DNA from: a virus
Virus record (IMG/VR): IMGVR_UViG_3300037851_000538
Span: 1-64,000 of that record
Direction: 5' to 3' (one strand)
DNA: 64,000 nt
Numbering within the stretch: position 1 is the stretch's first letter; each line of letters begins with the position of its first letter. The notes under the pieces were generated by a model. It worked only from the letters and a program-made list of their open reading frames with translations, had not been told where the DNA came from and searched no databases. Below are positions 20,225 to 41,750 of this stretch, piece after piece. Both the position numbers and the translations under genes were made by a program.

Positions 20225-20332
20225 TAAAAAACCGTCATCTTTTAGGGACCTCGTTGGGGGTGTATACGTGTTATTGGCCTCAGTTCTAGTGGCCTATTTT
20301 TGTGCGTAAACTGCCCTAGAAGGAGAAAATCC

Positions 20333-22606
20333 ATGCCCAATTTAGGTGAGTTACGGTCTGCTGCAGAGAACCTGGCAGGGAGAATATCTCGTGCTGGTTC
20401 TTCGGCTTCTACGATTCCGGGTAGGGTAGTTGGTAAAAACATTGGCGAGGCCGCTAAAGAGAGCTTGAGGCCGGCAAAACAGGAGCTTGAAGACTTAAGC
20501 CGGCAGGCCCAAGAAGAGCTGGACAATTTTACTCAGCAGGTTCGTAAGTCAATAAACGATTTGGGGTCAGAGGCTAGAGATCAGATTAACGAGTTTGGGT
20601 CTCTTAGCGAGGACGCAGTCAGGGGGGCTGGCGATGTTGTTTCCAACGAAGTCGTTAGGCATCTTGTGGGGTTTACCAAGCAGGTAGCTCCTGGAATGGC
20701 CGCTGGGGCGGTGTCTGGGGGTTTGGGCGGTTGGTCGCACGATGACCCTAGGCTTGGGGCTGGCCGAGGTCTTATTGCAGGCGGTATTGGTGGTCTGGGT
20801 GGTAGGGCTTTGGGGCCCGGCATGGTTCGTTCCGCTATCGGCGGTGGACTTTTGGGAGGAGCAGCTGGTACCTTCTTTGGGAAAGACAAGTCTGAAGTAC
20901 AGGAAGCTCCTAAGGGTAAAAACATGTCATCCAAGAACAAGTACGCTGGCGTTACTTTAGACTGGTACGACGATGAAGGGGAAACTCTGAAGGCGGTGTT
21001 TCCTACGTTGAACGACGTCCCAGAGGTCATCAAGACGGCGTCTATCAGACCCAAGAGCTCTTTGTCTTCTGAAGACTTTGCTCTCGTAATGATTGACGGT
21101 GGTACGGCGTTTCATAAGTACGCCTGCTATGATCCTGGTACTACAGCAATGTCCATGATCTACCTTGCGGAGCATGGAGACAAGCTTCCAGAAGATGCTC
21201 AGAAGACAGCGTCGGCTAACATACTAACCGCCTGTGAAAAATACGGCCTTACGAAAGAGGCAATTATAGGCCCCGCTATGTCTTTAAGTTTTGCAGGCAT
21301 TCCTGACGTAGTTGGGTATGTTTTGGGGAATTCGCATGGTAGGGAGGATTATCGTGCAGGCAGACAAAGACCTCACGGTGTAAGAGCAGTAGATGCGGCG
21401 GGGGGCTTAATAGTACCTGGGTACATTGGTTATCAGCTCGGGTACCGATCTGGTTATGACGAGCTTAAAGACCTAGAAAAGAAAAATCTTGAGAAGGACA
21501 ATAGATTTTCGGGCTCTACGGAAGAGGACGCTCTAAGAGCGGTCGTTATGTCGGATCTTAGAGAAGGAAAAGCCGTAGGTGCTTCTAAGTCCCAGCAAAG
21601 AAAAGAGTACGAAGCGTTTAGTAAAAACCCAGAAACTTTGGGCGTGGATTCAGAAAAAACATCGAGCGCCTTTGTAGATGTTACCGGTAAGAGCCCTGCC
21701 TTTGTTATTAAGGCAGCCAGTCCTTCTGACCCAAACGACTACGCGGTGGTTCTTTCAGACGGTACGAGAAAATACCCTATCCATACGTGGGATATGGTGA
21801 AGACCGCTGAGGCCTACTTCAAAGAAAATTCCGTACGGATGGAGGCTCCGATACGTCGGCACTTTGCCGTAAAGCTGGCGTCTAAGGCGGAGTCAATGGG
21901 CTATCCTATTGACCCGGACATTAGGGTACGGGGGTCCAGTTCTTACGCCGATAGCGGGCGTCTTCGTTCGGCATTAGATATGCGTAAGCTATCTTTTTCC
22001 AAGAACAGCCCGGAGTCTGGTTTCCTGGATGAGCTGTTTGAGAAAAGGGCAGAAGTATCTCCGTTTGTTTACTCCGAGTGCCTTCGCAGGTTCGACTTGG
22101 AGAACGGGCTTGATCGTCATTGGGACGTGAACATTCCAGACCCTTGGGCGTCCACCTTTGGGATCAAGACCGCTTCGGTAGTTTGGGAAGACGGCGCGGA
22201 TCGTGTTACGGAAGAGGAACTTAATAACCTCTCGTTGAATCATAGCGAGCTCAATCAAACAGCATTTACTCCGGAGATGGTTAGAGAGTTTCAAAAAGAT
22301 CCGGTTGGAGTGTTTCAGTCTCTCCCCTTGCCTCAGAAAAGAATGCTGGCTCGTTTGGCGGCTGACTGTGCCAATGGTGGGGAATCAGAGGGTGGTACCA
22401 AATCTGCTGGGGTTTTTGGTAAGGTTATGTCGAAGAGTCTGAGCCAGGGGGCAAAACCTAGGGGGACGTTTTACGGGAGAACGGTTTCCGCGGACCCAGA
22501 GGTTCAGGCCTTTCTGAAGTCTCCTTATGTTGCCGGCGCCAAGCCCTCTGTTGCCAAGAGGCCGTCTTCTGATGTTTGGGCTATGCTTCATCCTCAAAAG
22601 GTCTAG
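20333..22606 (+). CDS. Putative head-associated polyprotein with many K-x-A/S motifs
   Basis: AAGGAG RBS before ATG 20333; N-terminal glycine-zipper module; IKTAS, QKTAS, TKEA, EKTSS, IKAAS, VKLAS, TKSAG. Confidence 0.65.
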   Translation: MPNLGELRSAAENLAGRISRAGSSASTIPGRVVGKNIGEAAKESLRPAKQELEDLSRQAQEELDNFTQQVRKSINDLGSEARDQINEFGSLSEDAVRGAGDVVSNEVVRHLVGFTKQVAPGMAAGAVSGGLGGWSHDDPRLGAGRGLIAGGIGGLGGRALGPGMVRSAIGGGLLGGAAGTFFGKDKSEVQEAPKGKNMSSKNKYAGVTLDWYDDEGETLKAVFPTLNDVPEVIKTASIRPKSSLSSEDFALVMIDGGTAFHKYACYDPGTTAMSMIYLAEHGDKLPEDAQKTASANILTACEKYGLTKEAIIGPAMSLSFAGIPDVVGYVLGNSHGREDYRAGRQRPHGVRAVDAAGGLIVPGYIGYQLGYRSGYDELKDLEKKNLEKDNRFSGSTEEDALRAVVMSDLREGKAVGASKSQQRKEYEAFSKNPETLGVDSEKTSSAFVDVTGKSPAFVIKAASPSDPNDYAVVLSDGTRKYPIHTWDMVKTAEAYFKENSVRMEAPIRRHFAVKLASKAESMGYPIDPDIRVRGSSSYADSGRLRSALDMRKLSFSKNSPESGFLDELFEKRAEVSPFVYSECLRRFDLENGLDRHWDVNIPDPWASTFGIKTASVVWEDGADRVTEEELNNLSLNHSELNQTAFTPEMVREFQKDPVGVFQSLPLPQKRMLARLAADCANGGESEGGTKSAGVFGKVMSKSLSQGAKPRGTFYGRTVSADPEVQAFLKSPYVAGAKPSVAKRPSSDVWAMLHPQKV

Positions 22607-23484: not shown

Positions 23485-24200
23485 GCCAGGTGGTTCTCAG
23501 AGCTTTTGTGGACGAGATGCAGAGCATTGAAAAATCTGCGGGACCTATCAGCTACTTTAAGAACTGGGCGAACAAGCTTCCTCAAGAGATAGGTACCGCG
23601 GCCGACAGACTTATCCACCCCATTAGGGGGGTTAGAGAGGGGTGGAAAGAGCTTAGCGGAACTGCCCACGCGGCTTCTTTATCTCCTGAGGAGAAGGCCA
23701 ATCTAGTCTCTAGGGGTTCTGGACATCTTTTTCAGCCGTCTGTGCCCTTGTCCCAGGCCGCTAGGTCTCCAAACCGCGTTAGTTCTGTTGCCGAGGAGCT
23801 ATCTCGTCGTGGATGGACGGGGCAGGGAAAGATCACCAAGTATCTTCCAGTGGGGCAAAAAGGACTTACGGTAGGGCTTGGTGGCGGATTTGCAGTTCCC
23901 TCTGTGTATGAAGCGTACAAACAGGGCCCTGTAGGTCCTACAGGGGAAGGTGGATTAGCAGAGCGAGGTCTAGGAGAACTGGCCGGTAACGCTGCCTTCA
24001 TCGCGGCCGGGAAGATGGGTATTGCCCCGGCCCTGGCAATGCATGCTTTGGGTTCTGGCGTGGCTGGGAAAGCTGGACGTGTTATAGACCGATTAAGAGG
24101 TGGCGCTTCGTTGCGTCAAGCCTTGTATGCCCCGTCTCCTGTAGAAGCTCAGGAGCAGATAGCGAACATCGCGGAGAACTATAGTTATGGCAATGCTTGA
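23469..24200 (+). CDS. Putative internal head (cargo) protein with FVDEM...EKSAG leader
   Basis: Leader AFVDEMQSIEKSA|G followed by a basic, Gly/Ala-rich amphipathic body. Confidence 0.6.
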   Translation: MGSPLSQVVLRAFVDEMQSIEKSAGPISYFKNWANKLPQEIGTAADRLIHPIRGVREGWKELSGTAHAASLSPEEKANLVSRGSGHLFQPSVPLSQAARSPNRVSSVAEELSRRGWTGQGKITKYLPVGQKGLTVGLGGGFAVPSVYEAYKQGPVGPTGEGGLAERGLGELAGNAAFIAAGKMGIAPALAMHALGSGVAGKAGRVIDRLRGGASLRQALYAPSPVEAQEQIANIAENYSYGNA

Positions 24201-26163
24201 TGCATTGAACTTCGGGCCCAGCGGGGCTCTTAGGTTCTCTAGAAATACAGGACGCTCTTTAACCGGGGAAGGTCTTGGGGCCATAAGGTACCCATCCCCG
24301 TTTTTCGACATAGCCCAAACGTACCTGCCCACATCGTTCAAAACGATGCTCAGGTGGTGCCGTTACTACTTTCTCACTAACCCCTTAATCAACGCTGTCT
24401 GCTATAAGATGGCGGAGTATCCCGTAACTGACCTGATATTCGATTCCAAGAGCACGCACGACAACGAGCGCTGGCGGGTATTCTTTAACGAGGTTTTACA
24501 CTTTAAGAAGTTTGAAGTGGAAATGGGGTTAGACTACAATTGCTACGGTAATTCTTTTGTTAGCATCTATTTCCCATTTCATAAGATGCTGTCTTGCAAG
24601 AAGTGCGGACACGCTCGTGACGTTAGAAAGCAGAAGTACATATTCAGAGAGTATAAGTTCGTTGGAGAGTGCGAGCGCTGTAAGAGCTACGGTGAGTTCG
24701 ATGTTAGGGACCATTACGTACAGTCCGCTAAGCAGATACGACTTATTAGGTGGAACCCTGAGTACATCACTATAGAACACAACGAGGCCACGGAAGAGAG
24801 CCGCTACTACTACGTCATACCCCCCTCTCTGGCCAACGACGTTCGCATGGCCAAGCGCCACGTCATAGAGACTATTCCGCAGGCCTTTATTGAAGCCCTA
24901 CGACAGAACAAGGCGCTTCTTTTTAGTCGAAGCAACATTTACCACATGGCCCGCCCCACAATCGCTCAGAAGGATCGCGGTTGGGGTATGCCGATGATTC
25001 TTCCTGTGCTCAAAGACACCTTCTACCTACAGGTACTTCGTAAGGCTCAGGAGGCTATCGCGATTGAGCATGTAGTTCCTTTGAGGCTCTTGTTCCCTCA
25101 AACGTCTTCCGCAAGTGCCGACGTTTACAGTTCCATCAATTTATCCCAATGGAGAGATAAGGTTGAGCAGGAGCTGATTCGTTGGAGGCTGGATAACAAC
25201 TACATACCGATTCTTCCTGTCCCTATTGGTCAGCAGACTCTAGGTGGTGATGGTAGAGCTTTAATGCTGGCTCAAGAGTATCGTCAGTGGTCAGAGCACA
25301 TTGTTTCTGGAATGGGAGCACCCGTTGAGTTCATCTTTGGTGGTCTTAGTTTTTCTGGGTCGAACGTGTCTTTGAGAATGCTGGAAAACCATTTTCTAGA
25401 CGTTAAGTCCTTCCGCCTTCGTTTGGTTACCGAGTTCTTGATGCCTCAGATAGGCGCGTTTATGGGGTGGGAGCCTGTTCCGTGCCACTACAAGCGTTTT
25501 AGGATGGCGGACGACCTTCAGCGTAGTGCTCTGTTCCTTCAGTACAATCAGGCTGGGAAGATCTCCGACCGGTCTCTGTTAGAGGACACTGATTGGGATT
25601 CTGAAAAGGAGATGGAGCTCATCGAGCTCGAGCGTCGAGCGGTTCTGGAAAGTCAGAGGAGGCAGGCTCTGTCGCAGGCGGCAATACAGGGCGAGTCTCA
25701 GCTCATCATGTCTAAGTATCAGACTAGGGCTCAAAAGGTTATGCAAGAGATGATGGCCCCGCCGCCGCCCCCACAAGAGATGCAGGCTACAGACCCGGGG
25801 GCGGTTCCCGCAGAAGCCAGCCCTGCCCCGACCATGGAAATACCTCCTGGTCCTTTGGAGGACCCAAGCCAGGCACAGAACCAAGACTCTATTCAGTCTC
25901 AACTTCAATCACAGATAGGTCAAGCTCCTGCAGGAGGGTATGACGTGATGATGCTGGCTAACAAAATAGTTAGCTGGTTGAATCAACTTCCGGACCACGA
26001 AAAGGCCCGAGAGCTGTCTGCCATGCAGGCTAACAACCCGCATTTGTATAGCATCATACTTCCTATGCTTCAGGCGTCGTCAGGAGCTGAAAGAAGTTCG
26101 GCAGCCATGCCTCTTCCGGAACAAAAACCCCCTAGAAGGGGCCCGGAGTCTGCTTTGGTCTAA
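24187..26163 (+). CDS. Portal protein (putative)
   Basis: 658 aa in the head module; NPLINAVCYKMAEYP, YGNSFV, IYHMARP..GWGMPMI, GAPVEFIFGG pattern and Gln/Pro-rich C-tail as in large-phage portals. Confidence 0.65.
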   Translation: MAMLDALNFGPSGALRFSRNTGRSLTGEGLGAIRYPSPFFDIAQTYLPTSFKTMLRWCRYYFLTNPLINAVCYKMAEYPVTDLIFDSKSTHDNERWRVFFNEVLHFKKFEVEMGLDYNCYGNSFVSIYFPFHKMLSCKKCGHARDVRKQKYIFREYKFVGECERCKSYGEFDVRDHYVQSAKQIRLIRWNPEYITIEHNEATEESRYYYVIPPSLANDVRMAKRHVIETIPQAFIEALRQNKALLFSRSNIYHMARPTIAQKDRGWGMPMILPVLKDTFYLQVLRKAQEAIAIEHVVPLRLLFPQTSSASADVYSSINLSQWRDKVEQELIRWRLDNNYIPILPVPIGQQTLGGDGRALMLAQEYRQWSEHIVSGMGAPVEFIFGGLSFSGSNVSLRMLENHFLDVKSFRLRLVTEFLMPQIGAFMGWEPVPCHYKRFRMADDLQRSALFLQYNQAGKISDRSLLEDTDWDSEKEMELIELERRAVLESQRRQALSQAAIQGESQLIMSKYQTRAQKVMQEMMAPPPPPQEMQATDPGAVPAEASPAPTMEIPPGPLEDPSQAQNQDSIQSQLQSQIGQAPAGGYDVMMLANKIVSWLNQLPDHEKARELSAMQANNPHLYSIILPMLQASSGAERSSAAMPLPEQKPPRRGPESALV

Positions 26164-26165
26164 GA

Positions 26166-26202
26166 GCTAAAAAAGAGGGTCCTAGAGCTAGTAGGACCCT
26201 CT
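26166..26202 (-). terminator. 11-bp hairpin followed by TTTTTTAGC (minus strand), between convergent genes
   Basis: AGAGGGTCCTA-gagctag-TAGGACCCTCT at 26174-26202 then GCTAAAAAA (+). Confidence 0.75.
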
Positions 26203-26210
26203 CTGGAACG

Positions 26211-26447
26211 TCACAGGAACTTTTTCTGCAGACGCCTTTTGCACGCTGGGCATACTTCCTTGTACAGAAGGTTGCACTCGCGTCTAAAGCGCCTATCCGC
26301 TTCTAAAGTTATCCTGTCCTCGAATCCCAGGAACTCTTTTAGATGTTCCATGGAGCAGAAGGACCGTTCCTTTCTGGAGTCTCCTTCTCTTAATGTGACT
26401 ACGTCTTCTCCGCAGGCTAGCCCACAGTAGTCACAAGTTTGGATCAT
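26211..26447 (-). CDS. TRASH/YHS-like Zn-binding small protein
   Basis: AAGGA RBS before ATG 26447; CDYCG...RSFCSMEHLKEF, CPAC. Confidence 0.6.
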   Translation of the reverse strand: MIQTCDYCGLACGEDVVTLREGDSRKERSFCSMEHLKEFLGFEDRITLEADRRFRRECNLLYKEVCPACKRRLQKKFL

Positions 26448-26460
26448 GCCTAATCCTTTT

Positions 26461-26883
26461 TTAGAAGTCGTCGGCATGTCCAAGATTCCAAAGAGGGAGT
26501 CCCCAGATGTCACACGCACAAGCAAAGTGCGCGTGCGCAAAGGAGTCCGGACAAAATACGCTGTCCGGCCCTTTACCTGTCTTATTTTTCTTGATGTACC
26601 CCCACTCGAACCGTATTACTGATTCGGAGAGGTAAGAATCCCGAGGGACGAACTGCTGCTTGCACAATTCGCAGCAATCTACGCTGAGCTCGTCCAGGTA
26701 CAGGCCTGCTGATTCAGAACATGCACGGCAGACCCATTTTATGAAGGTCCTATCCTCAAAAGACCCCTCGCCTTCGTCCGGGTAGAAGACGACATCGTCC
26801 TTCTCGTATTGGACCCCACCTATGGTTATCTTGAAGAGCTCGCTTTCCACTATGCCTTCATCACACAGAAGGCATATCCTCAC
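26461..26883 (-). CDS. Cys-rich protein with two CxxC-led repeats (start re-assigned to GTG 26883)
   Basis: AGGAGG RBS before GTG; CLLC...CRAC; CELC...HFAC. Confidence 0.6.
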   Translation of the reverse strand: MRICLLCDEGIVESELFKITIGGVQYEKDDVVFYPDEGEGSFEDRTFIKWVCRACSESAGLYLDELSVDCCELCKQQFVPRDSYLSESVIRFEWGYIKKNKTGKGPDSVFCPDSFAHAHFACACDIWGLPLWNLGHADDF

Positions 26884-26954
26884 TCCATCCTCCTGGTACC
26901 GAACAGAACCAGGGTACCTATGAAGGATGCCACTATTATTGTGACCACCCACAT
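26880..26954 (-). CDS. 24-aa single-TM peptide (MWVVTIIVASFIGTLVLFGTRRME); not in ORF track
   Basis: TGATG coupling upstream and GTGA coupling downstream. Confidence 0.55.
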   Translation of the reverse strand: MWVVTIIVASFIGTLVLFGTRRME

Positions 26955-27088
26955 CAGTTATCTTCTCTCTCTGTATTGTTCTCCCAGTATCCTGGGAGCT
27001 CATTCCCTATTTTTTCACAACAGTTGTGGGCATCGAGGTCGGCCATCTCGACCTCTACGTCTTCTCGTGGCTCCACTTGTGGCTCCAT
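26954..27088 (-). CDS. Small acidic protein, 44-47 aa (MEPQVEPREDVEVEMADLDAHNCCEK...); not in ORF track
   Basis: AGGAGG RBS at 27101-27106 just downstream of the GGTATAAG motif; alternative TTG start at 27097. Confidence 0.55.
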   Translation of the reverse strand: MEPQVEPREDVEVEMADLDAHNCCEKIGNELPGYWENNTEREDN

Positions 27089-27138
27089 TTGATCCAATTT
27101 CCTCCTGTTAGGTAACTAATAGCCAGCTCTTCAATATT

Positions 27139-27146
27139 CTTATACC
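27139..27146 (-). promoter_or_regulatory. GGTATAAG putative phage promoter element
   Basis: Intergenic, upstream of the RBS of the minus-strand island; same octamer at 61858 (+) and 63116 (-). Confidence 0.55.
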
Positions 27147-27230
27147 CGATTGATGTGCGTTTCTTTCCGAAGTAGGATTCGGTCAAAATGCTCTCTGCAT
27201 AGGCACTTTCAGGAAATCCAGGAGTTAGCT

Positions 27231-30200
27231 GTGGCTTATTACAATCCGACCGAGCCTTTCGAGACGATGAAGAAGCGTTTGAGCGAGACGGTAAAATCTC
27301 AGTTTCCTGTTGAGGGTCGTCGGCACACGTTAAGAGCGTCTAAGGTCTGGATTGAGGACGATAAGGCGATCACGGATATCCATTCTCAAGAAGAGGCTAA
27401 GCTCAAGGAGAGGTCTTGGACTGTCCCCATGAAGGCTCATCTAGAGCTCGTGGACAAAGAGACAGGAAAGGTCAAGGACCAGAAAGTCGTAGTGCTGGGA
27501 CAGCTGCCAAAGATAACTAATAGGTGGACTTACATCGTAGACGGACAAGAGCGCCAGATCGCGAACCAATTTCGTTTGCGCTCTGGGGTCTATACGCACG
27601 TCAGAGAAAACGGAGAACTAACCTCTCAATGGAACCTAGCCAAGGGTCTAGGATTCAATATGAATATAGACCCGTCTTCAAAGATTATGTCTATCACTTT
27701 TACCAATAAGGCGTCTAAGATACCCATATACTCTGTTTTGAAACTTATGGGTGTTCCTGACTCGGACATTGAAAAGTCCTTGGGTAAGGCCTTTTATGAA
27801 GCTAACAAGAACGTAAAGTCCGACAAGGTCGAAGAACTGTACCGCGCATTTAAGGGAACCCCCCCTCCCTCTAAGGAAGAGGCTAGGAAGGTTGTTCTTC
27901 AAGAGTTCGAGCGCATGGCTCTTCTTCCGGACACTACTAAAGTTACGTTGGGCTCTTCTTTTGAAAAAGTAAACGGAAGCTCTTTGTTGGCTGGAGCCTC
28001 TAAGCTGTCCAAAGTGTTTCGTAAGGAAGAAGATCCAGACGATAGAGACTCTTTGGTGTTCAAAGACCTATACTCGGCCGAAGACCTTTTAACGGAGCGC
28101 CTATCCAAAAAGAACGTAAAGGACATACAGAGGAAGATCCTCAACAACGTAGACAAGAAGTCTAGTGTTTCAGAGATCGTCCACCCTGATATTTTCGGCA
28201 AGCCTATTCGTCAGTTTTTCATTAGCCCTCTATCAGAGTTTCCAGACCAGCTTAATCCGATGAGCTACCTGTCTGGTAATCGGAGAACAACCATTCTGAA
28301 AGAGCATGGCATATCGGACCCCGTAATGATTTCTTTGGGGGCCAAGGCCATTAACCCTTCCCATATAGGGTTTCTTGACCCAATCCAAACTCCTGAGTCG
28401 GAAGCCCTAGGAGCGACTTTGCAGCTTGCTTTGGGGGTTAGGAAATCAGGACACAAAGTCTATATAAAGCTCCGAAACGTCAAGACCGGAAAGTACGAAG
28501 AGGTGGACGCGGCCAAAGCGCTGGGGACTACTTTTGCCTTTCCTGACCAAGTAAAGAAGACAGATAAAGGCCTGTTTCCCGTAGACAAGCTTATCAAAGC
28601 GAGTGACAAAAAGGGTAACATCGTTATGGTAAAGCCCTCGGAGGTCACTCATGTTTTGGACTCTCCTAAGGCACTGTTCGATTTCTCATCTAACCTGATA
28701 CCGTTCTTGCAGAACAATCAGGGCAATAGAGCTATGATGGCGTCAAAACAGCTCGAGCAGGCAATGCCCTTGAAGAATAGAGAGGAGCCTTTAATCCAGG
28801 TCAAAGAGGAGTCTGGTTCCACTTTTGAAAATATTCTGGGGCGTATAGCGGCCGCTCACGTTTCAAGAGTAGACGGGGTGGTTCAAAAGGTTACAGACAA
28901 GTCCATCTTTATCAAAGAAGACAAAACGGGTAAGCCCTATGAGGTAAAGCTCTACAACAATTTCCCCCTCAACAATGACAAGTCCTTAATACACTCTGAG
29001 CCTATAGTTAAGGTGGGGGACAAGGTTTCCAAAAACCAGCCGGTGGCCGATACCAACTTTTCCAAGAACGGCACCATGGCTTTAGGCACTAATTTGAGAG
29101 TGGCCTATATGCCGTGGAGAGGCTATAACTTTGATGACGGAATAGTTATCTCTGAATCCGCTGCCAAGAAGTTGACCTCCACTCATCTGTTTAGGGAGCA
29201 GGTGGCGCAGGAGAAGAATGTCATTCTGGACAAGAAAAAACTTTTAGCACACGTCGGGGCTACGGTTTCCAAGTCGTCAACAGATAAGCTGGACGATAGG
29301 GGGGTGGTTCAAGTAGGGCAGACAGTCTATCCTGGAGATATTCTTATTGGGGCCTTGAAGCACGAAGAAATAACTCCAGAACAGCGCCAGCTGGCTGTGT
29401 TCTCAAAGAAGCTCATAAAGCCAGTGAAGCCCAACCTGGTGACTTGGGACCGAGAGGTTCCGGGAACTGTAGTGCGCGTAGTCAAGCACGGTAAGAACAC
29501 TACAGTATACGTGAGGGCGGACGAGCCTGCAGACGTTGGGGACAAGATAGTAGGTAGGTATGGAAACAAGGGGGTAATAACAACAGTACTTCCAGACCAT
29601 GAGATGCCGTTAGACCAAGAAGAAAAGCCCCTGGAGGTTCTTCTAAACCCGTCAGGGGTTCCTTCTCGTATCAACATGGGGCAGATACTAGAGACTGCTG
29701 CCTCTAAAATAGCTAGAAAGACTAACACTCCGTACGTGGTCAACAACTTTGACCAAGACATTCCGGACTACACTAGACATTTGAAGGACGAACTTAAAAA
29801 GCACGGGTTATCGGACGTAGAGAATCTTAAAGACCCTTCTACGGGTAGGGTCTTTAAGGATGTTTTGGCCGGGGAGCAATACATACTTAAGCTGCACCAC
29901 ACCGCGGAGAAGAAGCTGTCTTCCAGGTCTAGAGATGCCTATGACTCTAATCTTATGCCTAGAGGTGGAGGGGATGCTAGCGGACAGAAGATGGACGCTA
30001 TGGGCCTTTACGCATTATTGGCTCACAACGCGCGGTCAGTGATTCGTGAAGCCCAGACTCAAAAGAGTGAGCGTAACGACGATTACTGGGCTGCGTTGCA
30101 GGCTGGAGACTCCTTGCCGGCACCTAAAGTGCCCTTTGTTTTTAAGAAGTTTGAAGGTTACCTGAAAGCCATGGGGCTGGACACCGTGAAGGAAGGCAAC

Positions 30201-33200
30201 CACCTCATTCTTCAGCCCTTGACCGACAAGGCCATTCTAAAAACCAGCGCAGGAGAGATTAAAGACCCCGGTGTCTCTTTTCAAGGCAGCACACTGAAGC
30301 CAGAAAAAGGAGGCATATTTGATCCGTCCATTACTGGAACTAAAGGCGCTGGTAAGTCTCTGGAGCTGGGAACAAACTGGGCTCACATCACTCTAGCGGA
30401 TAGAATGCCCAACCCTGTTTTCCAGAAGCCCATATCTAGTCTGTTGGGCATGAGCGGAACGCAGTTCAACGACGTTGTTAAAGGCCACTCTAAGTTAAAC
30501 GGGGCCACAGGTCCTGGAGCCATAGTCTCTGCCCTGAAATCCATAGACGTAGAAAAAAGACTGTCTGAATTGGAGTCTAAGCTGCGCTCCTTGCGCGGAA
30601 CTAAGTTGGATATAGCAAACAAGGAGCTGAAGTATCTGAGGGCTCTTAAATCCAGCGGCCTCAGCCCTCAAGAAGCTTACACTATAAAACATCTTCCGGT
30701 TCTTCCTCCCAATATGAGGCCAGTGTCAGTACAGGAGAACGGCGCTCTTGCCGAAGACCTTGTAAACAAAATGTACAACATGATTGGTAACACCAATTAC
30801 CAGCTCAAGACATTTGATCCGAAGGTACATCCGGAAGAGGAAGTAGCCGTTCCTTTGCGCGCAGAGCTGTACGACGGTCTTAAGGCGCTAATGCTGTTAG
30901 GCACCAAGGTGGCTAAGGGAAAAGAGTTTGCGGGTATTGCCAACATCATTTCCGGAGGCGGTTCCCCTAAAGAGGGGTTCTTTCAGGACAAGGTGATTGG
31001 AAAAAGGCAAGACCTGTCCATGCGAGGCACTATCATCCCAGAACCTTCTATGTCTTTGGACGAGGTTGGTATCCCTAGGAAGGCCGCTCAGGAGCTCTAC
31101 AAGCCTTTTATCATGTCTAGACTCATCCGGTCGGGGATCAGCCCAGCTCAAGCATTGAAAGAAATAAAGAACAACTCTGACATGGCCTTTATGGCGTTAC
31201 AGAGCGTACTGAACGAGAGGCCCATAATTTTGAAAAGAGACCCGGTTCTGCATAAGTACGGGGTACAGGCTTTTCGTCCTAGAATCATAGAGGGTAAGGC
31301 CGTACGCATTCACCCTCTGGCAACAAGCGGTTACAACGCTGACTTCGACGGTGACGCAATGAGCGCGTACGTCCCGGTCAGTTCAAAGGCGGTGGAGGAG
31401 GCTTTCAAGATGATGCCTTCTCACAACATCTTCAATCCTGCTACTGGAAACGTCATGTATAAACCGAGTCAGGAGTCCCTGTTTGGCTTATACAAGCTAA
31501 CTGAGATGGGTTCTGGCCCCGCTAAGAAGTTTTCTGGCCTAGACCAGTTGGCCAAAGCGACGATGGCAGGAGAAATTGATTTCAATACCCCTGTCAGCCT
31601 CAAGAGCATAGACAAAGACATATCCAAGTTGATCAAGATCGGAGCCCCCGAGGTAAAAACCACGGTAGGTCGGCTCCTTGTTTACAATGCCCTTCCAGAA
31701 GATTTGAGAGACCCGGCCATTCTGTCAGATCCTTCGTTTAAGATGACTTCTTCCAGTCTCAACAAGCTTCTAGGCGCAGTTGCCATTAAACGGCCCCACG
31801 ATTTTGGAAAAGTGGCAGACGCTCTGAAGAATCTTGGCAACGAATTTTCTACGGGTTCCTCGGTTGGCCTAGACGATTTTATTTCTCACAAGCACGACCG
31901 AGATAGAATTCTTCGGGAGGCTCGCGATCTAGAGAAGGCTATTACCGCCAAGGACAAAGACAAAAGGGAAGAAGAGACGATCAAGATCTACAACAAGGCT
32001 GGTGGTAAAATAGAGGAAGCAGCCTTGGGGTCTATCGAAAAGTCTAAGAACCGCATGTACGATTGGGTTAAGGCGGGTGCTAAGGGAAACTGGGACCAGT
32101 TTCGACAAATGGCAGTAGCACCCCTATTAGTGGTGGACTCTTACGGGAAGACAGTCCCGGTTCCTATCACCAAGTCCTATTCTGAGGGCCTGGACGTAGC
32201 TTCATATTGGGCATCAATGCACGGAGCTCGTATGGGAACTCTGAGTCGCGTGGAGGGTACATGGCGCCCCGGTCTTTTGAGCAAAGAGATCATGCAGGCC
32301 ACTATGGGCCAAATGGTGGTTAGCGAGGATTGCGGAACAGAAAAAGGCATATTGATGCCCATTGAGGACAAAAACGTCCTAAACCGATTTCTAAGTCAGG
32401 CCGTCTCCTTAGGCCAGAAGACCGGAAAGGACAAGGGGGTCCTGCCCGCAGGGACTCTGGTGACTCCAGATGTTCTAAATCGTCTAAGAAACAACAAAGT
32501 AACCGAGGTTCGAGTTCGTAGTCCTTTGAAATGCGCGCACGGAGAGGGGTTGTGCGCAAAGTGCTATGGGATTAACGAGAACGGAAAACTACATCAAAAA
32601 GGAACAAACGTAGGAGTCATCGCCTCTCAGGCTCTTGGGGAGCCTATGACGCAGCTGAGCATGAACTCTTTTCATACGGGTGGCATAGCCGGTTCCGTGG
32701 GCGCTAAAGCCACTAGCGTGTTTGACAGAATAGACCAGCTGACCAAGATTCCTAGTATACTTCCAGGATCTGCCGTCTTGTCCACCGCGGAGGGAGTAGT
32801 TAGCAGTATTTCTAAGGACCCGGCCGGCGGATGGTCGGTGTTTGTTGGAGGGGAAAAGCACTATGTACCCCCATCTCGGGAGATTGTTGTTAAGAAGGGC
32901 GACTCTTTGAAAAAAGGGGACGCTGTCTCTTCAGGAGTTAAAAATCCGAGGGACATACTTAGGCTACAGGGGATAGGCGCGGTTCAGAATTATCTTACGA
33001 CCGAGCTTGAGAAAAACTACGGAAAGGCCCAGACGCCCCTATTTAGACGTAACGTAGAAACATTTGTTCGATCCATGACCAACCTGTGCGAGGTGGTGGA
33101 CCCAGGAAGCCACGAGTCTTACGTGAAGGGAGACACTGCTCCCACGTCTGTCATCCTAGAGTACAACTCCAAAGCTTCTAAGGAGGGTAAAGCCCCCGTA

Positions 33201-33416
33201 AAGTTCTCTCCAATCCTCAAGAGCGTAGAAACTCTTCCTTTGGACATGCACGAAGACTGGGTGGCTCGCCTTCAGTCCCGTAGGTTGAAGTCTACAATAC
33301 TGGATGCGGCCGCCGAGGGGTGGAGGTCTTCGTTACACAGCACCCACCCTATACCAGCAATGGCGTACGGCGCAGAGTTTGGACAGGGAACTCCTGATAA
33401 ACCCTGGCTTTACTAG
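27231..33416 (+). CDS. rpoBC: Single-chain DNA-directed RNA polymerase, fused beta + beta' (bacterial-type two-barrel)
   Basis: beta motifs: IVDGQERQI, HIGFLDPIQTPE, LIPFLQNNQGNRAMM, YMPWRGYNFDD, GDKIVGRYGNKGV, NPSGVPSRINMGQ, YILKLHH. beta' motifs: LPVLPPNMRP, GKRQDLSMR, RDPVLH, NADFDGD, DCGT, RSPLKC..CAKCYG, GEPMTQLSMNSFHTGG. AGGAG RBS before GTG 27231. Confidence 0.95.
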   Translation: MAYYNPTEPFETMKKRLSETVKSQFPVEGRRHTLRASKVWIEDDKAITDIHSQEEAKLKERSWTVPMKAHLELVDKETGKVKDQKVVVLGQLPKITNRWTYIVDGQERQIANQFRLRSGVYTHVRENGELTSQWNLAKGLGFNMNIDPSSKIMSITFTNKASKIPIYSVLKLMGVPDSDIEKSLGKAFYEANKNVKSDKVEELYRAFKGTPPPSKEEARKVVLQEFERMALLPDTTKVTLGSSFEKVNGSSLLAGASKLSKVFRKEEDPDDRDSLVFKDLYSAEDLLTERLSKKNVKDIQRKILNNVDKKSSVSEIVHPDIFGKPIRQFFISPLSEFPDQLNPMSYLSGNRRTTILKEHGISDPVMISLGAKAINPSHIGFLDPIQTPESEALGATLQLALGVRKSGHKVYIKLRNVKTGKYEEVDAAKALGTTFAFPDQVKKTDKGLFPVDKLIKASDKKGNIVMVKPSEVTHVLDSPKALFDFSSNLIPFLQNNQGNRAMMASKQLEQAMPLKNREEPLIQVKEESGSTFENILGRIAAAHVSRVDGVVQKVTDKSIFIKEDKTGKPYEVKLYNNFPLNNDKSLIHSEPIVKVGDKVSKNQPVADTNFSKNGTMALGTNLRVAYMPWRGYNFDDGIVISESAAKKLTSTHLFREQVAQEKNVILDKKKLLAHVGATVSKSSTDKLDDRGVVQVGQTVYPGDILIGALKHEEITPEQRQLAVFSKKLIKPVKPNLVTWDREVPGTVVRVVKHGKNTTVYVRADEPADVGDKIVGRYGNKGVITTVLPDHEMPLDQEEKPLEVLLNPSGVPSRINMGQILETAASKIARKTNTPYVVNNFDQDIPDYTRHLKDELKKHGLSDVENLKDPSTGRVFKDVLAGEQYILKLHHTAEKKLSSRSRDAYDSNLMPRGGGDASGQKMDAMGLYALLAHNARSVIREAQTQKSERNDDYWAALQAGDSLPAPKVPFVFKKFEGYLKAMGLDTVKEGNHLILQPLTDKAILKTSAGEIKDPGVSFQGSTLKPEKGGIFDPSITGTKGAGKSLELGTNWAHITLADRMPNPVFQKPISSLLGMSGTQFNDVVKGHSKLNGATGPGAIVSALKSIDVEKRLSELESKLRSLRGTKLDIANKELKYLRALKSSGLSPQEAYTIKHLPVLPPNMRPVSVQENGALAEDLVNKMYNMIGNTNYQLKTFDPKVHPEEEVAVPLRAELYDGLKALMLLGTKVAKGKEFAGIANIISGGGSPKEGFFQDKVIGKRQDLSMRGTIIPEPSMSLDEVGIPRKAAQELYKPFIMSRLIRSGISPAQALKEIKNNSDMAFMALQSVLNERPIILKRDPVLHKYGVQAFRPRIIEGKAVRIHPLATSGYNADFDGDAMSAYVPVSSKAVEEAFKMMPSHNIFNPATGNVMYKPSQESLFGLYKLTEMGSGPAKKFSGLDQLAKATMAGEIDFNTPVSLKSIDKDISKLIKIGAPEVKTTVGRLLVYNALPEDLRDPAILSDPSFKMTSSSLNKLLGAVAIKRPHDFGKVADALKNLGNEFSTGSSVGLDDFISHKHDRDRILREARDLEKAITAKDKDKREEETIKIYNKAGGKIEEAALGSIEKSKNRMYDWVKAGAKGNWDQFRQMAVAPLLVVDSYGKTVPVPITKSYSEGLDVASYWASMHGARMGTLSRVEGTWRPGLLSKEIMQATMGQMVVSEDCGTEKGILMPIEDKNVLNRFLSQAVSLGQKTGKDKGVLPAGTLVTPDVLNRLRNNKVTEVRVRSPLKCAHGEGLCAKCYGINENGKLHQKGTNVGVIASQALGEPMTQLSMNSFHTGGIAGSVGAKATSVFDRIDQLTKIPSILPGSAVLSTAEGVVSSISKDPAGGWSVFVGGEKHYVPPSREIVVKKGDSLKKGDAVSSGVKNPRDILRLQGIGAVQNYLTTELEKNYGKAQTPLFRRNVETFVRSMTNLCEVVDPGSHESYVKGDTAPTSVILEYNSKASKEGKAPVKFSPILKSVETLPLDMHEDWVARLQSRRLKSTILDAAAEGWRSSLHSTHPIPAMAYGAEFGQGTPDKPWLY

Positions 33417-33426
33417 GACTTAGATA

Positions 33427-34524
33427 ATGACCCGGACAATCGCCGAGACAGAGTACGTACCGTCACACGTAGAGGTGGTGCGTATAGTAAACGTAAACAT
33501 CGTGGACTGGTCTGTAGACTGCGTGTCTGAAAAGGGCGGAAAGCGCTATTTCGATATCCAGGTCATGTCCCCCTACTTCCACTATATGAACGGGGAGGGG
33601 ATATACGCTGTTCCAGAGGTCGGGGCCGTGGCTTGGCTATGTCTCCCTAGCGAAGGAAGGTTTGCTGCCCCTTTTCTTTTAGGGTTCATGTCTCCTTTCG
33701 AGCAGGACACACAGAGTTTTAGGAGTGGTCGTCAGAACCTAAACCCCGGTGACATTATGCTTCGGACGAGAGATGAGAACTTTGTAGTTCTCCGTCGCGG
33801 CGGTGTTCTTCAGATGGGCGCAACCCCGGTTGCTCAAAGGATGTTTATACCTATCCGGAACTATATCAAGGACTTCTGCGAGAACTACGAGCTGGCTACT
33901 TTTGGTGGCACTCTTTCTTGGACTACTGAACGAGACGACCAGACTACGGACGGAAGTTCTCCTACTGTTTTGAGAATTTCTGCTAAAGAGAAGGCGAACG
34001 ACTCTGGGAATGCCGTGGAGCTGTCTTTAGGTTCCCATGGAGAGGACAGCCCTACTACACTAGAGCTGGTTGTTAGGTCTTCTGGAGATAAAAACGCTGA
34101 GGCAAAAGTGACTTTGACAATCACCAAAGAAGGAGACGTGGTCTGGGACGTTAAGAAATCAATCTCCGTAACGGCCTACGGGGACATTGATATATCTACC
34201 ACGGACGGCTCCCTGAACGTGTCTTCTGGAAAAGACGTCTCGTTGTCGGCCAGTGGTTCCCTCAGCGCAGATTTTGCCCAGGACGCCAAGATATCGACAT
34301 CGGGGTCGTTGCTGATGTCTGGAGATCAGGGGGCCACCTTGGACAGCCCCACTATCTGCCTTGGCCGAGGAGCCTCCAACCCGGTAGTTAAAGGAACAGA
34401 GCTGATGCAGTTTTTGGGGCAGCTGATAGCTACCTTGTCCGCTTACCCACCTACTGCAGGAGTGGGTTCTTTGACCCCACTGATTCCAAACATTGTGTCT
34501 ACGCAGTCATTTCTTTCTCGATGA
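33427..34524 (+). CDS. Baseplate spike / gpV-gp5-like protein
   Basis: OB-fold-like IQVMSPY...GIYAVPEVGAVAWL, followed by Ser/Thr/Gly beta-helix repeats and C-terminal LG..A..PVVKG. Confidence 0.65.
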   Translation: MTRTIAETEYVPSHVEVVRIVNVNIVDWSVDCVSEKGGKRYFDIQVMSPYFHYMNGEGIYAVPEVGAVAWLCLPSEGRFAAPFLLGFMSPFEQDTQSFRSGRQNLNPGDIMLRTRDENFVVLRRGGVLQMGATPVAQRMFIPIRNYIKDFCENYELATFGGTLSWTTERDDQTTDGSSPTVLRISAKEKANDSGNAVELSLGSHGEDSPTTLELVVRSSGDKNAEAKVTLTITKEGDVVWDVKKSISVTAYGDIDISTTDGSLNVSSGKDVSLSASGSLSADFAQDAKISTSGSLLMSGDQGATLDSPTICLGRGASNPVVKGTELMQFLGQLIATLSAYPPTAGVGSLTPLIPNIVSTQSFLSR

Positions 34525-37952: not shown

Positions 37953-40900
37953 ATGGGCCTCCTCTTGTTCTCTAAGCAGGCTTCAAGGATATCTGAGGCC
38001 GCATCCTCTTCAAAAAAGAACTCGTCGTATTTAGAAGAGGGCTATATTGGTCCGGGACTTCCTAAAAAGAAGGTATCGGACCTCCCTAAAGTAGACCTAC
38101 CCGAGCGTTGGGAATTTTCTGCCCATCCGCACGACGCTAAAAAAAGCGGCCTACACGTAGACGTTCGTCTGGGAGACCCCGTATCTGGCATAGCTCATTC
38201 ATTCGTTATTCCTAAGACAGACAAGCTTCCTGAACCCGGGTCTAATGTCCGGGTCATTCCAACCTTCGATCACAAGATACCGTACATGGATTTTACCGGT
38301 ACGATATCCACTCCGTACGGTAAAGGAGAAGTCATTCCTGGTCGAAGAGAGGTAGCAGAGGTCTATCATTCCACTCCAGAAAAGGACCCAGGCACCAAGG
38401 TCAGATTCAACCTATACTCAGGCTCTCATCCAGAAGAATTCGCTATACGAAAAGATGAGAGAGGCCGTTGGTATCTTCACAATAAGACCCAGACCAGAGA
38501 AAGACGGCCGGATATACCGGACTACAAGCCCAAGTACAAAGAGGTATCTGTAGATTCAATAGACCCTTCTGACGAATCCCAAGCCATGATGCCCAAGCTA
38601 GACGGAGCTCATGGGATAATAGATTTGAAGGCTGGTAGGTCTCCGAGAGTGTATTCTTACCGAGTGGGGGTCAAGACTCCTACAGGACTAATTGAGCACA
38701 CCCATAAGATACCAGAACTTCTAAAGACCAAAGTCCCTAAAGAGCTAGACGGAACTATTATACGGGCCGAGATATTGGGCAGAGACAAAGACGGTAAGGC
38801 CATTCCTGCTCAAGAGATTGGAGGACTACTTAACTCCAAAGTTTGGGAGAGCCGAAAGAAGCAAGAGCAGTCGGGGGTAAAACTGTGGGCTTTTCCATTC
38901 GACGTTGTGAAGCATAAAGGAAAAGACGTTTCCCATCTGCCTTTTGAGGACAAGGTCAAAATACTCAAAAAGGTAGAAGAGTCCTTTGGGCCTGTAGAAC
39001 TTCCTGAGATTGTTTCTGGAACTTTAGAGAAGATAGAGCTTTTGAACAAGATTCGTTCAAAGGCGCATCCTTTAACTGAAGAGGGTGTAGTTCTTATAGA
39101 CCCTAAAAAGCCCTCTGCTCCTATAAAGGCCAAGTTCTCTCCTGACTTCGATGTGTTCGTTAGGGATATACACCCGGCCATCAGCGGAAAGACTGGAGAG
39201 AAGCATGATAGGGCTGGGTCAATCAGTTATTCCTGGACTCCTAATGGCCCGATAGTTGGCCAGCTTGGTGGTTTCTCTCATGGAGAAGCCAGAGAGATGA
39301 TTAAGAACCCGGACAGGTACATTGGCCGAGTCGCAAAGGTGAAGGCTATGAAAGTGTTTAAGTCGGAGTCCGGAGATCCGGGAGCTTTGTTTCAGCCTCG
39401 GTTCAAAGAGTGGCACTTGGACAAGGGCGACATCGAAAAGAGCTCAGCGGCTTCTATGCTGACAAAGGTTTCAGAGATGAAGAAAAAGGCAGATAACTCC
39501 AGTCTGAAAAAAGACGTGTCTCTCTACGACCATCAGAAAAGAGCTATTGAAAAGGTAAAGAGCCACGATGGCAATCTTATCCTTAGCCACGGAACTGGTT
39601 CTGGAAAGACCCTTACTGCGATAGCTGCCTTTGAATCTCTTCGTGAAGACGGAAAAGCCACTAAGGCCCTGGTTGTTACTCCAGCTTCTTTGAGGGCTAA
39701 CTTTATAGACAACGGGGTCAGGAAGTTTACTACTTCTAGGGCATCTATCATTGGAAATAGCGAGGAAGCTAAAAAGGGCATAGCTCGTTCTTTAGACGAT
39801 CCCGATCCTGGTTCTAGGTACCATGTCATCTCCTACGAGATGTTTTCCAAAGACCCTGAAAAGGCGATCAAGGCTACTGGGGCAGATACGGTCATTTATG
39901 ACGAGCTTCACCGAATTCGTAACGATCAGGGGGTGACATACAAGACCATTAAGGACGCCAGGAAGCACCACAGGAACTTCATAGGTCTTACTGGGTCTTT
40001 GATGAACAACACTCCTGCGGATTTGGTCCCTTTAGTTGACGCTATGACGGATGGCAATCACCGTCTTGGGACCAAGGCCCGTTTCGAGACTCGTTTTATT
40101 TCTGAGTCTAAGGGGGGTAAGAAGATAAACAAACCGCAGGTGGTGAAAGCCCTGCTCAACCCATTTGTAGACCATTTTGAAACCAAAGACCTCTCCGACG
40201 CCAAAATGCCTAAAAAAGTGGTGGAGGAAGTCAAAGTGATGATGAGCCCCTATCAAGAGGAGCTATATCGTTACGTGGTCAACAAGATGGATCCTATTAC
40301 GGCCATCAAGTTCCGTTTGGGAACTACTAAGCTGAAGACGCACGATATCAGCAACATCTTCTCTCAGATAATTCAAGCCCGGCAGGTATCTAACTCTCCG
40401 CACACCATAGACCTGAGTCTTCCTATCCAGGATGCTCCAGACAAATCCCCCAAGGTAAAGAAATTGCTAGATGATGTAGAAGAGCATCTCAAAGAGACTA
40501 GCGATGGTCAGGTGGTTATTCACTCTAACCTTATTAAGGGTGGCGTGGATGTTCTATCAGAGGGTCTTAAGCAGAGGAACATTCCCTTCTCGACCTTTGT
40601 AGGTAAAGGGCAGCCGGGAGTAACAGAGGACAAGAGGCAGAAGGGGGTAGAGGAATTCAATTCTGGGAAGAAGCGGGTGATAGTCATATCCGCTGCGGGA
40701 GGGGAGGGGTTAGACCTTAGAAACGCTACTATGTTTGCTGGGCTCGACGGCCATTTCAACCCAGAGAAAGTTAATCAGGCCGAGTCTCGGGCCGTACGAG
40801 CTGGCGGACTTTCTCATAGGCCTGAAGAAGACCGGAGAGTAATAGTAAAGAGATACGTGAGCGTGGTTCCTAGGTCTATAACCCAGACCCTATTGGATAC

Positions 40901-41750
40901 CTCTGAACTGATATCACCATCTGCGATATTCAAGCGGGTATCTACCCCCGGGACTCCTATTTTCTACAACCCTTTTAAGAGGGAAAGGTCCCCTGACGAG
41001 TGGATGTCCGAAGTTGCATCCAATAAGGATATCCTCAACAAGCAGTTTAGAGAGCAGTTAAAGACATCTGCCGCCGACGAATTTGTTCCTGTGGACTATG
41101 TTTTGGAGTCAATGTCCGGGTCATTACTTAAAGTAGCGAAGTTAAACTCTTTTTGTGAGGAGCTCGAAAAAATATCCTCGGCCGCTAGTAGTAGGATACC
41201 ATATCAGCCCTACAGGTTCGTCAAGTCCGACCACCACATCATGTCCCATTACTGGGACAAGTTAGGCCCCGAGGTGGAGAAAATGGACGACCCCTACACT
41301 GAAGAACTTAGTAAAAAAGAGGACCAGATAGAGGAACAAAAACACGTTGAAGCCTTGAGAGCGTATTATCGAGAAGCGGCCAAGTCCCCTCCTGGCACTA
41401 TGTCTGCTAAAAATCCCTTATCGGATTCTGAGTACCTTAAACCTCTTCTTTTGGGTTCGGCTGCTGGAGGGGCTGTAATGGGTATTCCTTTGTCCATGAA
41501 CGCCATTGAGGTTTTTGAGCCTAAGACTTTGAAACATACTTTGGGGATCGGGGCGGCTGCTGTTGGTGGAACAGCTCTTTTGAGCGCCGGGTTGGCGTAT
41601 CACATGGCCAGGAAAAACCCCTCGTTTACTACCGCTAAGTCCAAGGCCAAAAAGCTACATAAGCTCCCCGATCAAGATCTTAGGGCCATGCTGCGCGGGC
41701 TTTCCATTAAGGAAGAGGTTGTTAAAACCACTGAGCATTACATCAAATAA
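37953..41750 (+). CDS. Multidomain protein: LigD-type 3'-phosphoesterase + ATP-dependent DNA ligase + SNF2 helicase + Gly-rich C-domain
   Basis: PE: HDAKKSGLHVDVRL, SFVIPK, FDH..YMDF.G.I..PYGKG.V. Ligase: PKLDG, FPFDVV, EEGVVL, KAK, QPRFKEWHLDK. SNF2: HGTGSGKT, YDELH, LTGSLMNN, GGEGLDL, QAESRAVR. Confidence 0.88.
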   Translation: MGLLLFSKQASRISEAASSSKKNSSYLEEGYIGPGLPKKKVSDLPKVDLPERWEFSAHPHDAKKSGLHVDVRLGDPVSGIAHSFVIPKTDKLPEPGSNVRVIPTFDHKIPYMDFTGTISTPYGKGEVIPGRREVAEVYHSTPEKDPGTKVRFNLYSGSHPEEFAIRKDERGRWYLHNKTQTRERRPDIPDYKPKYKEVSVDSIDPSDESQAMMPKLDGAHGIIDLKAGRSPRVYSYRVGVKTPTGLIEHTHKIPELLKTKVPKELDGTIIRAEILGRDKDGKAIPAQEIGGLLNSKVWESRKKQEQSGVKLWAFPFDVVKHKGKDVSHLPFEDKVKILKKVEESFGPVELPEIVSGTLEKIELLNKIRSKAHPLTEEGVVLIDPKKPSAPIKAKFSPDFDVFVRDIHPAISGKTGEKHDRAGSISYSWTPNGPIVGQLGGFSHGEAREMIKNPDRYIGRVAKVKAMKVFKSESGDPGALFQPRFKEWHLDKGDIEKSSAASMLTKVSEMKKKADNSSLKKDVSLYDHQKRAIEKVKSHDGNLILSHGTGSGKTLTAIAAFESLREDGKATKALVVTPASLRANFIDNGVRKFTTSRASIIGNSEEAKKGIARSLDDPDPGSRYHVISYEMFSKDPEKAIKATGADTVIYDELHRIRNDQGVTYKTIKDARKHHRNFIGLTGSLMNNTPADLVPLVDAMTDGNHRLGTKARFETRFISESKGGKKINKPQVVKALLNPFVDHFETKDLSDAKMPKKVVEEVKVMMSPYQEELYRYVVNKMDPITAIKFRLGTTKLKTHDISNIFSQIIQARQVSNSPHTIDLSLPIQDAPDKSPKVKKLLDDVEEHLKETSDGQVVIHSNLIKGGVDVLSEGLKQRNIPFSTFVGKGQPGVTEDKRQKGVEEFNSGKKRVIVISAAGGEGLDLRNATMFAGLDGHFNPEKVNQAESRAVRAGGLSHRPEEDRRVIVKRYVSVVPRSITQTLLDTSELISPSAIFKRVSTPGTPIFYNPFKRERSPDEWMSEVASNKDILNKQFREQLKTSAADEFVPVDYVLESMSGSLLKVAKLNSFCEELEKISSAASSRIPYQPYRFVKSDHHIMSHYWDKLGPEVEKMDDPYTEELSKKEDQIEEQKHVEALRAYYREAAKSPPGTMSAKNPLSDSEYLKPLLLGSAAGGAVMGIPLSMNAIEVFEPKTLKHTLGIGAAAVGGTALLSAGLAYHMARKNPSFTTAKSKAKKLHKLPDQDLRAMLRGLSIKEEVVKTTEHYIK

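Follow-up and report, generated by a model that had tools for sequence, protein, structure and literature searches.

The closest described relatives of the RNA polymerase (RNAP) considered here are those of Salmonella phage Arash, where the enzyme consists of gp206 and gp216 with the sigma factor gp10, and of the Vibrio phages D69, D148 and D181, which are also the best matches in the phage collection. The enzyme is encoded by one gene in a 64,000-nucleotide stretch of viral DNA, hereafter the window, which is the first 64 kb of the 84,367-base IMG/VR record IMGVR_UViG_3300037851_000538, a fragment of an uncultured large tailed phage that is judged about 42% complete. The two pieces of the Arash enzyme are labelled 'beta' and 'beta'' in the accessible part of the Arash paper, which does not comment there on a fusion. 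Like the enzymes of Arash and the D69-like phages, the window enzyme joins beta to beta' at the same junction and has the same trimmed architecture, with an identity of about 31–33%, and in Arash and D69, too, the gene comes just after the portal gene and has a helicase gene nearby. It differs from them in being a single chain that carries an additional loop where the relatives are split; they use two genes, which in Arash are several genes apart. Arash is placed with D69 by architecture and similarity, and D69 and the window enzyme form one clade in the trees presented below.

The rpoB-rpoC fusions of Helicobacter and Wolbachia likewise have beta and beta' head to tail in one polypeptide, but they are full-size cellular enzymes that retain alpha, omega and the zinc finger. 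The polymerase of phage N4 is a T7-like single-subunit enzyme, that of the crAss-like phages is distantly related to RNAi-type polymerases, and to our knowledge neither uses sigma factors. Their likeness to the window enzyme is in the proposed role, as they are reported to be very large, capsid-carried enzymes that are injected for the early genes. The phiKZ-like and AR9/PBS2 enzymes are described as phage-encoded two-barrel polymerases without alpha or omega, of which a virion-packaged form exists, but also as very divergent, as made up of four or five polypeptides in two paralogous sets, and as lacking a sigma70 homologue. In contrast, the window enzyme is one chain, present in a single copy in its relatives, readily matched by Pfam and PDB, and belongs to a family with sigma. 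A further phage clade (loci L051–L065), with bacterial-type subunits of 25–29% identity, is found on the phage side of the split from bacteria; in it beta' and beta are separate genes, beta' coming first, and it forms a clade of its own (support 1.0 and 100 in FastTree and IQ-TREE respectively). The YerA41, Rhizobium RHph_TM30 and Cobetia Carin-5 types probably belong in this reverse-order clade, as a candidate placement. Full-text literature searches, together with passages of PMC7824862, PMC13282480, PMC13374769 and PMC12451628 and of reviews on jumbo phages and alpha-like subunits, supplementary tables apart, gave no description of a fused, or of a bacterial-like and sigma-using, phage beta-beta' enzyme. 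The window enzyme is built from known parts, as its large subunits are of cellular type, fusions of this kind have been seen before and injected polymerases are an established strategy, and the window adds a tree-based order of fusion and split, together with the loop at the split site.

The polymerase gene and the reality of the fusion

An open reading frame (ORF) scan of the window found a sole long open frame across the interval (27150..33416, plus strand), and the original prediction of a single ORF running from beta into beta' in about 2060 residues is borne out by one frame of 2,061 codons, in whose translation all the quoted peptide strings are present. The GTG at 27231 gives a protein of 2,061 aa with an N-terminus that fits the family consensus MAxxxPxExFExLK, and the coordinates 27231-33416 are regarded as correct because this start combines the family consensus with an AGGAG ribosome-binding site; the gene caller used on the record selected a later ATG, giving 2,049 aa (P0002). 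The protein is, as had been noted, much shorter than RpoB and RpoC together (about 2750 aa), which in Salmonella have 1342 and 1407 residues, 2749 in all.

A contig from an independent assembler, made from a public run that may be the source sample, spans positions 27100-33500 without a single difference. A second study provides a contig of 247 letters that covers 30137-30382 and thus bridges the beta/beta' junction. Among the 120 best metagenomic homologues listed, 89 have a length of 2,030-2,110 aa, with identities of 43-72% for all but the window's own protein, 28 are longer (2,294-2,929 aa) owing to intein or homing-endonuclease domains, and 3 are shorter. As the contigs agree and 89 of the 120 listed homologues have the same length, the fusion is a conserved design, and the suspicion that reads might reveal a stop at the junction is refuted as far as sequence data can show.

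Intein-type insertions were noted among homologues P0010-P0119 and in loci L004, L018, L021, L026, L037, L041, L042, L044, L046, L054 and L064. The longer homologues exceed the family length by 230-880 aa, and the insertions, of 160-510 aa, concentrate at a few model positions, for example just past NADFDGD (about 1369) and in the trigger loop (about 1805).

Domain organisation

By Pfam, residues 338-905 carry Rpb2 domains 3 and 6, and residues 1136-1834 of the same frame carry Rpb1 domains 1-5 (PF00562 with E 1e-61 and PF00623 with E 4e-29), and solved bacterial beta' chains in PDB match from their residue 164-175 or so with E values of about 1e-120. The predicted protein is confirmed by these matches as a bacterial-type two-barrel RNA polymerase core in which beta is joined directly to beta'. 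A profile of 42 full-length family members (A1) was aligned to Salmonella RpoB (1,342 aa) and RpoC (1,407 aa) taken from a public contig, and the counts of residue conservation cover 39 family rows. The alignment shows that the chain keeps every catalytic element and both sigma docking sites, while the lineage-specific insertions and the beta' zinc finger are missing. All 39 rows have the catalytic aspartates D460, D462 and D464, and 38 have the trigger-loop H936; the cysteines of the second zinc site (Zn-II) are kept in 33 rows, the window among these, and the bridge helix, the clamp helices and the flap tip, which is the docking site for sigma region 4, are retained as well. The elements that had been called intact, namely NADFDGD, bridge helix, Zn-II and trigger loop, are confirmed in the window.

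The deficit of about 700 residues consists mainly of four segments. Compared with Salmonella, beta 230-422 (SI1 and part of the lobe) has shrunk to 61 positions and beta 1126-1206 to 28, and beta 933-1047 (SI2) and beta' 950-1137 (SI3) are absent; we take the four, in the order beta 230-422, 933-1047, 1126-1206 and beta' 950-1137, to be the enterobacterial insertions SI1, SI2, In11 and SI3. In addition both termini are trimmed, with some 20-28 leading beta' residues gone and a shorter beta' C-terminal tail, and beta' 66-166, which includes the zinc finger, has shrunk to 39 positions. The zinc-finger cysteines C70, C72, C85 and C88 have no counterpart columns in the family profile, and 37 of 39 rows have no cysteine in model positions 985-1080, in agreement with the claim that the N-terminal zinc-binding domain of beta' is missing and free of cysteine. 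The description of the enzyme as minimal holds only in part: it is a compact single chain without the zinc finger, but most of the lost length corresponds to lineage-specific insertions that many bacteria lack too. When twelve other bacteria were mapped in the same way, Actinobacteria and a Parcubacteria genome had a beta about as compact as the phage beta, and the feature that sets the phage enzyme apart from the compared bacteria is the trimmed beta' N-terminus with the loss of the zinc finger.

At the rifampicin pocket the position of S531 is Thr in 36 of 39 rows, and that of H526 is Gly in the window; such positions govern sensitivity and resistance to rifampicin. Since both are substituted, insensitivity is predicted, and on this sequence evidence the enzyme is probably rifampicin-insensitive.

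An AlphaFold model of residues 902-1352 (pLDDT 81.4, pTM 0.72) matched bacterial beta' N-terminal regions only (TMq 0.50-0.56); as a model it supports the expected fold and brings nothing further. The tetrapeptide KTSA at the junction was considered as a protease site and rejected, the family consensus there being x-M-S-N-G-E, which is the conserved beta' N-terminal strand.

Relatives and phylogeny

In Arash and D69 the first gene encodes beta and the N-terminal part of beta', ending near model position 1450 (Arash gp206 spans model positions 6-1450), and the second encodes the C-terminal part of beta', starting near 1465. The window chain continues through model positions 1450-1465, and the C-terminal third of beta' is thus not on a separate gene. 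Of 45 clade loci in IMG/VR, 29 have a single uninterrupted ORF, 2 a single frame with in-frame TGA, 10 are in two pieces, and 4 are cut or unclear. A more distant group of IMG/VR phage loci has separate beta' and beta genes in the reverse order, and the bacterial genomes matched, from many phyla, have only ordinary rpoB-rpoC pairs with 27-33% identity.

Trees were made from profile-anchored columns with FastTree (86 taxa, 1,545 columns) and with IQ-TREE under LG+G4 for 60 taxa, namely 39 clade rows, 6 reverse-order rows and 15 bacterial rows. The trees are unrooted (no outgroup was used), the methods are fast ones, and the bacterial sampling is biased to the best matches. The trees exclude clade loci with fewer than 1,800 model columns (L001, L023, L024, L027, L033, L039, L046, L049 and L064), loci of the reverse-order type below 900 columns, unlabelled bacterial loci and those below 1,550 columns, and all the giant-virus loci, L066-L088. 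The Arash locus, being cut, is in neither tree, and Vibrio phage D69 and six uncultured two-piece loci stand in for it.

The fused clade, in which the window enzyme is found together with the two-piece enzymes of the D69 type, is monophyletic (FastTree 0.989, IQ-TREE aLRT 100), as is the two-piece subclade with D69 in it (0.975 and 99.4), and the single-chain lineage L048 branches below that subclade. Bacteria of about 12 phyla are found across a supported split from the phage side (1.0 and 94.1), and the phage clade nests in no sampled bacterial phylum. The most parsimonious history is that beta and beta' were fused once, in the ancestor of the clade, and that beta' was split once thereafter. 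The trees show the fusion as ancestral to a large phage clade, of which the subclade of the D69/Arash type later split off the C-terminal third of beta'.

In two loci, L029 (10154-15925) and L043 (10109-16015), the polymerase frame is broken only by in-frame TGA codons, 3 and 2 respectively, and two of these fall at conserved Trp positions of the family. The two phages probably decode TGA as tryptophan.

Sigma factors, alpha and omega

It had been noted that no alpha, omega or sigma gene is recognizable in the window, and this extends to the whole 84,367-base record, in which searches found no alpha (PF01000), no sigma regions 2 or 3 (PF04542, PF04539), no gp10-like sigma and no omega. As the record is about 42% complete, these absences are uninformative. 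Five near-complete relatives, with records of 178-210 kb that are 93-100% complete, each have a single RNAP locus and a gp10-like sigma (E 5e-17 or better in 5 of 5), but the alpha domains PF01000 and PF01193 were found in none of the five, and omega (PF01192) in none above the cut-off. Of the 4 proteins of the gp10 type that were scanned, 3 exceed the Pfam cut-off for Sigma70_r3, with weak signals for regions 2 and 4. Arash has two sigma-like proteins, gp10 (234 aa) and gp196 (345 aa), and in the latter it is Sigma70_r2 that is above the cut-off (E 6e-10).

A complex prediction for the clamp region of one relative with its own sigma gave a score of 0.81, against 0.00 for the best control; this mark is reached by 58 of 80 solved complexes and by 2 of 110 mismatched pairs. 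At least 77% of the contacts recur between runs, the partner has a pLDDT of at least 79, and the interface lies on the clamp helices. Because sigma-core complexes have already been solved, this result indicates likeness to them and is no proof of binding. The hint in the original prediction that the enzyme might act independently of sigma is not supported, because all five relatives encode a gp10-like sigma and the window's record is simply incomplete; the conserved docking sites and the modelled pair agree with this.

Presence in the phage particle

In the accessible part of the report on Arash, gp206 is the most-detected protein of the purified particles, with 100% coverage, 128 peptides and 3,516 spectra, followed here by gp216 (1,210 spectra), the helicase gp217 (1,148) and the sigma gp10 (467), and the particle list given there is without the second sigma, gp196. 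Since gp10 is found in the particles and gp196 is not listed, this suggests that gp10 is the virion sigma of Arash and gp196 a later one. For YerA41, RNAP subunits and a sigma are likewise reported as particle-associated. The proposal that the window enzyme is packaged in the virion is therefore plausible, as its orthologues gp206 and gp216 are among the most-detected particle proteins and the order of portal, RNAP and helicase genes is common to the window and Arash.

Proposed role and alternative explanations

We consider it likely that the enzyme is the phage's own transcription machinery, with a one-polypeptide catalytic core that is packaged and works with a phage sigma. For sigma, the core would use a gp10-like member of the sigma70 family encoded by the phage itself; in the window phage the gene for it would lie in the unsampled 58% or so of the genome. 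Core, sigma and SNF2 helicase would be packed in the capsid and injected with the DNA, and the early genes would then be transcribed without the host polymerase, probably despite rifampicin. Freshly synthesized enzyme, combined with a second sigma, probably serves the later genes as well, because the relatives have only one polymerase locus. The covalent link between beta and beta' may replace the alpha dimer as the assembly platform. For the window enzyme itself we infer packaging, independence of alpha and insensitivity to the drug. More tentatively, the core of about 230 kDa could be self-sufficient, capsid-borne and in need of only a small phage sigma, with neither alpha nor omega, and its lineage could predate the divergence of the sampled bacterial phyla and not be a recent capture.

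Several points weigh against this proposal. The window's own 84-kb record is without any sigma, and phage genomes without an alpha homologue remain compatible with the use of host alpha. The argument on rifampicin is drawn from two substitutions at resistance positions. According to the accessible part of the Arash report, the structural proteome comprises 116 proteins, including ribonucleotide reductase and a nucleotide kinase, and its authors warn that abundant infection proteins may contaminate the preparation. YerA41 probably belongs, as a candidate, to the more distant clade with separate beta' and beta genes, and the single-chain members are known from sequence alone.

A possible, though doubtful, alternative is that the single chain still needs the host alpha dimer, and perhaps omega, as its assembly platform, which would make it a hybrid phage-host enzyme. 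Compared with the phiKZ and AR9 enzymes it is far closer to bacterial beta and beta' (E 1e-120 to solved beta'), alpha is known to be retained alongside the natural cellular beta-beta' fusions, and no phage substitute for alpha was identified. On the other hand an enzyme that arrives packaged and has to act at once would need to bring alpha along or obtain it, the beta' N-terminus and C-terminal tail are trimmed, and the phiKZ and AR9 enzymes are reported to be active without alpha or omega, but none of these counterpoints is decisive.

Less probable, and in our opinion unlikely, is a polymerase that is not a virion component and is made only after infection for the middle and late genes, with the host polymerase starting transcription and the signal in Arash particles representing carry-over. 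The contamination raised by the Arash authors and the many metabolic enzymes on their particle list would agree with this, as would the early expression class reported for the RNAP genes of YerA41, and the window RNAP has no N-terminal leader of the kind found on small head proteins (see below). Carry-over fits poorly with gp206 being the most-detected protein with complete coverage, with the presence of one sigma but not the other, and with particle association in two independent studies, on Arash and YerA41, as far as these are accessible. In the window, Arash and D69 the gene is also directly downstream of the portal gene and in the orientation of the head genes.

It is rather improbable that the enzyme is a single chain as a gene only and is cut, for example by a head protease, at the loop of residues 1456-1476 or so into two working chains. 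The window shares only with its closest relatives, L011 and L010, an insertion of about 18-30 residues that coincides with the split site, and the three insertions end in [LM]-x-K-x-[AG], which resembles the end of a leader on three small head-region proteins. That leader, F-x-[DE]-E-[LM]..K-x-[AGS], is at residues 8-13 of the proteins at 23469 and 56131 and at 67297 of the contig; 6 matches were found in 80 predicted proteins, against 2.1 expected and a shuffle maximum of 6. The short motif is low in information, however, it comes from three closely related sequences, the split-site loop of the window polymerase does not fit the full leader pattern, and the insertion is missing from most single-chain relatives. 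The phage family has no known cleavage specificity, and the two-piece relatives end and restart cleanly at the loop without leaders. Internal copies of the leader pattern are found in 20300-22606 and 37953-41750, and a single match inside the polymerase, in its beta part, was set aside as it looks like chance.

That the fusion is an artefact of assembly or binning, or a cellular rpoBC on a contig wrongly called viral, has nothing in its favour and next to no probability given the spanning contig, the bridged junction, the 89 listed homologues of the same length from separate assemblies, the portal, terminase and capsid genes that flank the gene, and the at most 33% identity of the bacterial genes.

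Genomic neighbourhood

The neighbouring genes were identified by local tblastn against Arash and are listed with the features of the polymerase in Table 1. The polymerase belongs to the head gene block because homologues of portal, terminase, head protein and capsid genes surround it, which is in accordance with the earlier statement that it sits among structural genes.

Table 1. Positions in the window of the polymerase gene, its elements and the neighbouring genes.
Feature	Position	Strand	Basis or remark
Portal gene	24187..26163	+	31% identical to Arash gp204 across 567 aa (tblastn, E 1e-83)
Ribosome-binding site AGGAG	27220..27224	+	Read directly; GTG start 6 nt on
Single-chain beta-beta' RNA polymerase gene	27231..33416	+	2,061 codons and stop; ORF, Pfam, PDB matches, homologues, contigs
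Beta module, residues 1-983	27231..30179	+	Aligns to Salmonella RpoB 49-1338; without SI1, SI2 and the 1126-1206 insertion
Rifampicin-pocket region	28215..28298	+	Alignment; RpoB D516 kept, H526 to Gly, S531 to Thr
Beta flap-tip helix equivalent	29370..29411	+	Alignment to RpoB flap tip
Beta/beta' junction	30180..30269	+	8 residues link the beta C-terminus to the conserved beta' N-terminal strand
Site of missing beta' zinc finger	30297..30398	+	Cys-free loop between conserved KPEKGG.FD and W.H..L
Beta' clamp helices (coiled coil)	30756..30896	+	Alignment; canonical docking site of sigma region 2
Catalytic YNADFDGD	31332..31355	+	Alignment; aspartates in 39/39 rows
Surface loop with insertion, residues ~1456-1476	31596..31679	+	Exactly at the gene split point of the Arash type
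Bridge helix region	32202..32306	+	Alignment
Second zinc site	32325..32570	+	Four Cys aligned to RpoC C814, C888, C895, C898
Trigger loop without SI3	32637..32693	+	Alignment
LigD-type 3'-phosphoesterase, ATP-dependent DNA ligase and SNF2 helicase, 1,265 aa	37953..41750	+	Helicase part homologous to Arash gp217
Large terminase homologue of Arash	43502-45307		tblastn
Head protein	49324-55419	+	tblastn; 2,031-aa ORF
Major capsid protein homologue of Arash	59232-60356		tblastn

The gap between the portal and the polymerase genes holds only a terminator-like hairpin, GC-rich with flanking A/T runs at 26171-26200 just past the portal stop, and a short minus-strand cassette of small ORFs (26164-27146), some of them Cys-rich, with no match in Pfam or PHROG. 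In Arash gp217, which is reported as detected in virions, adjoins gp216. Residues 39-179 and 496-690 of the head protein match the much shorter Arash structural protein gp222, and a gp222-like protein would thus form part of a giant multi-domain head protein.

The sequence GGTATAAG had been put forward as a possible promoter and has 5 exact matches against 1.22 expected, a number reached in 1 of 100 shuffles. About half of the matches are intergenic and their orientations are mixed, with one copy on the minus strand at 27139-27146, and no 6- to 8-mer is shared by 5 or more of the 30 regions upstream of genes. With no k-mer enriched upstream of genes, the case for a promoter is weak and the motif was rejected as one.

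Significance

Textbooks attribute bacterial transcription to a core of five subunits, and here hundreds of phage genomes carry a natural core in one gene, in a family that is large and biochemically untouched. If the enzyme works alone, it would be a compact, probably rifampicin-insensitive and sigma-programmable polymerase for structural work and orthogonal gene expression, as well as a measure of how much of the cellular enzyme is dispensable, and it would represent a third, bacterial-like solution among the injected phage polymerases of the N4, phiKZ and crAss types. Should the self-sufficient reading be true, it would be the smallest natural sigma-dependent RNA polymerase of the cellular type, and a natural test of the roles of the alpha platform and the beta' zinc finger. 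The cultured phages Arash, D69, D148 and D181 make the family testable now.

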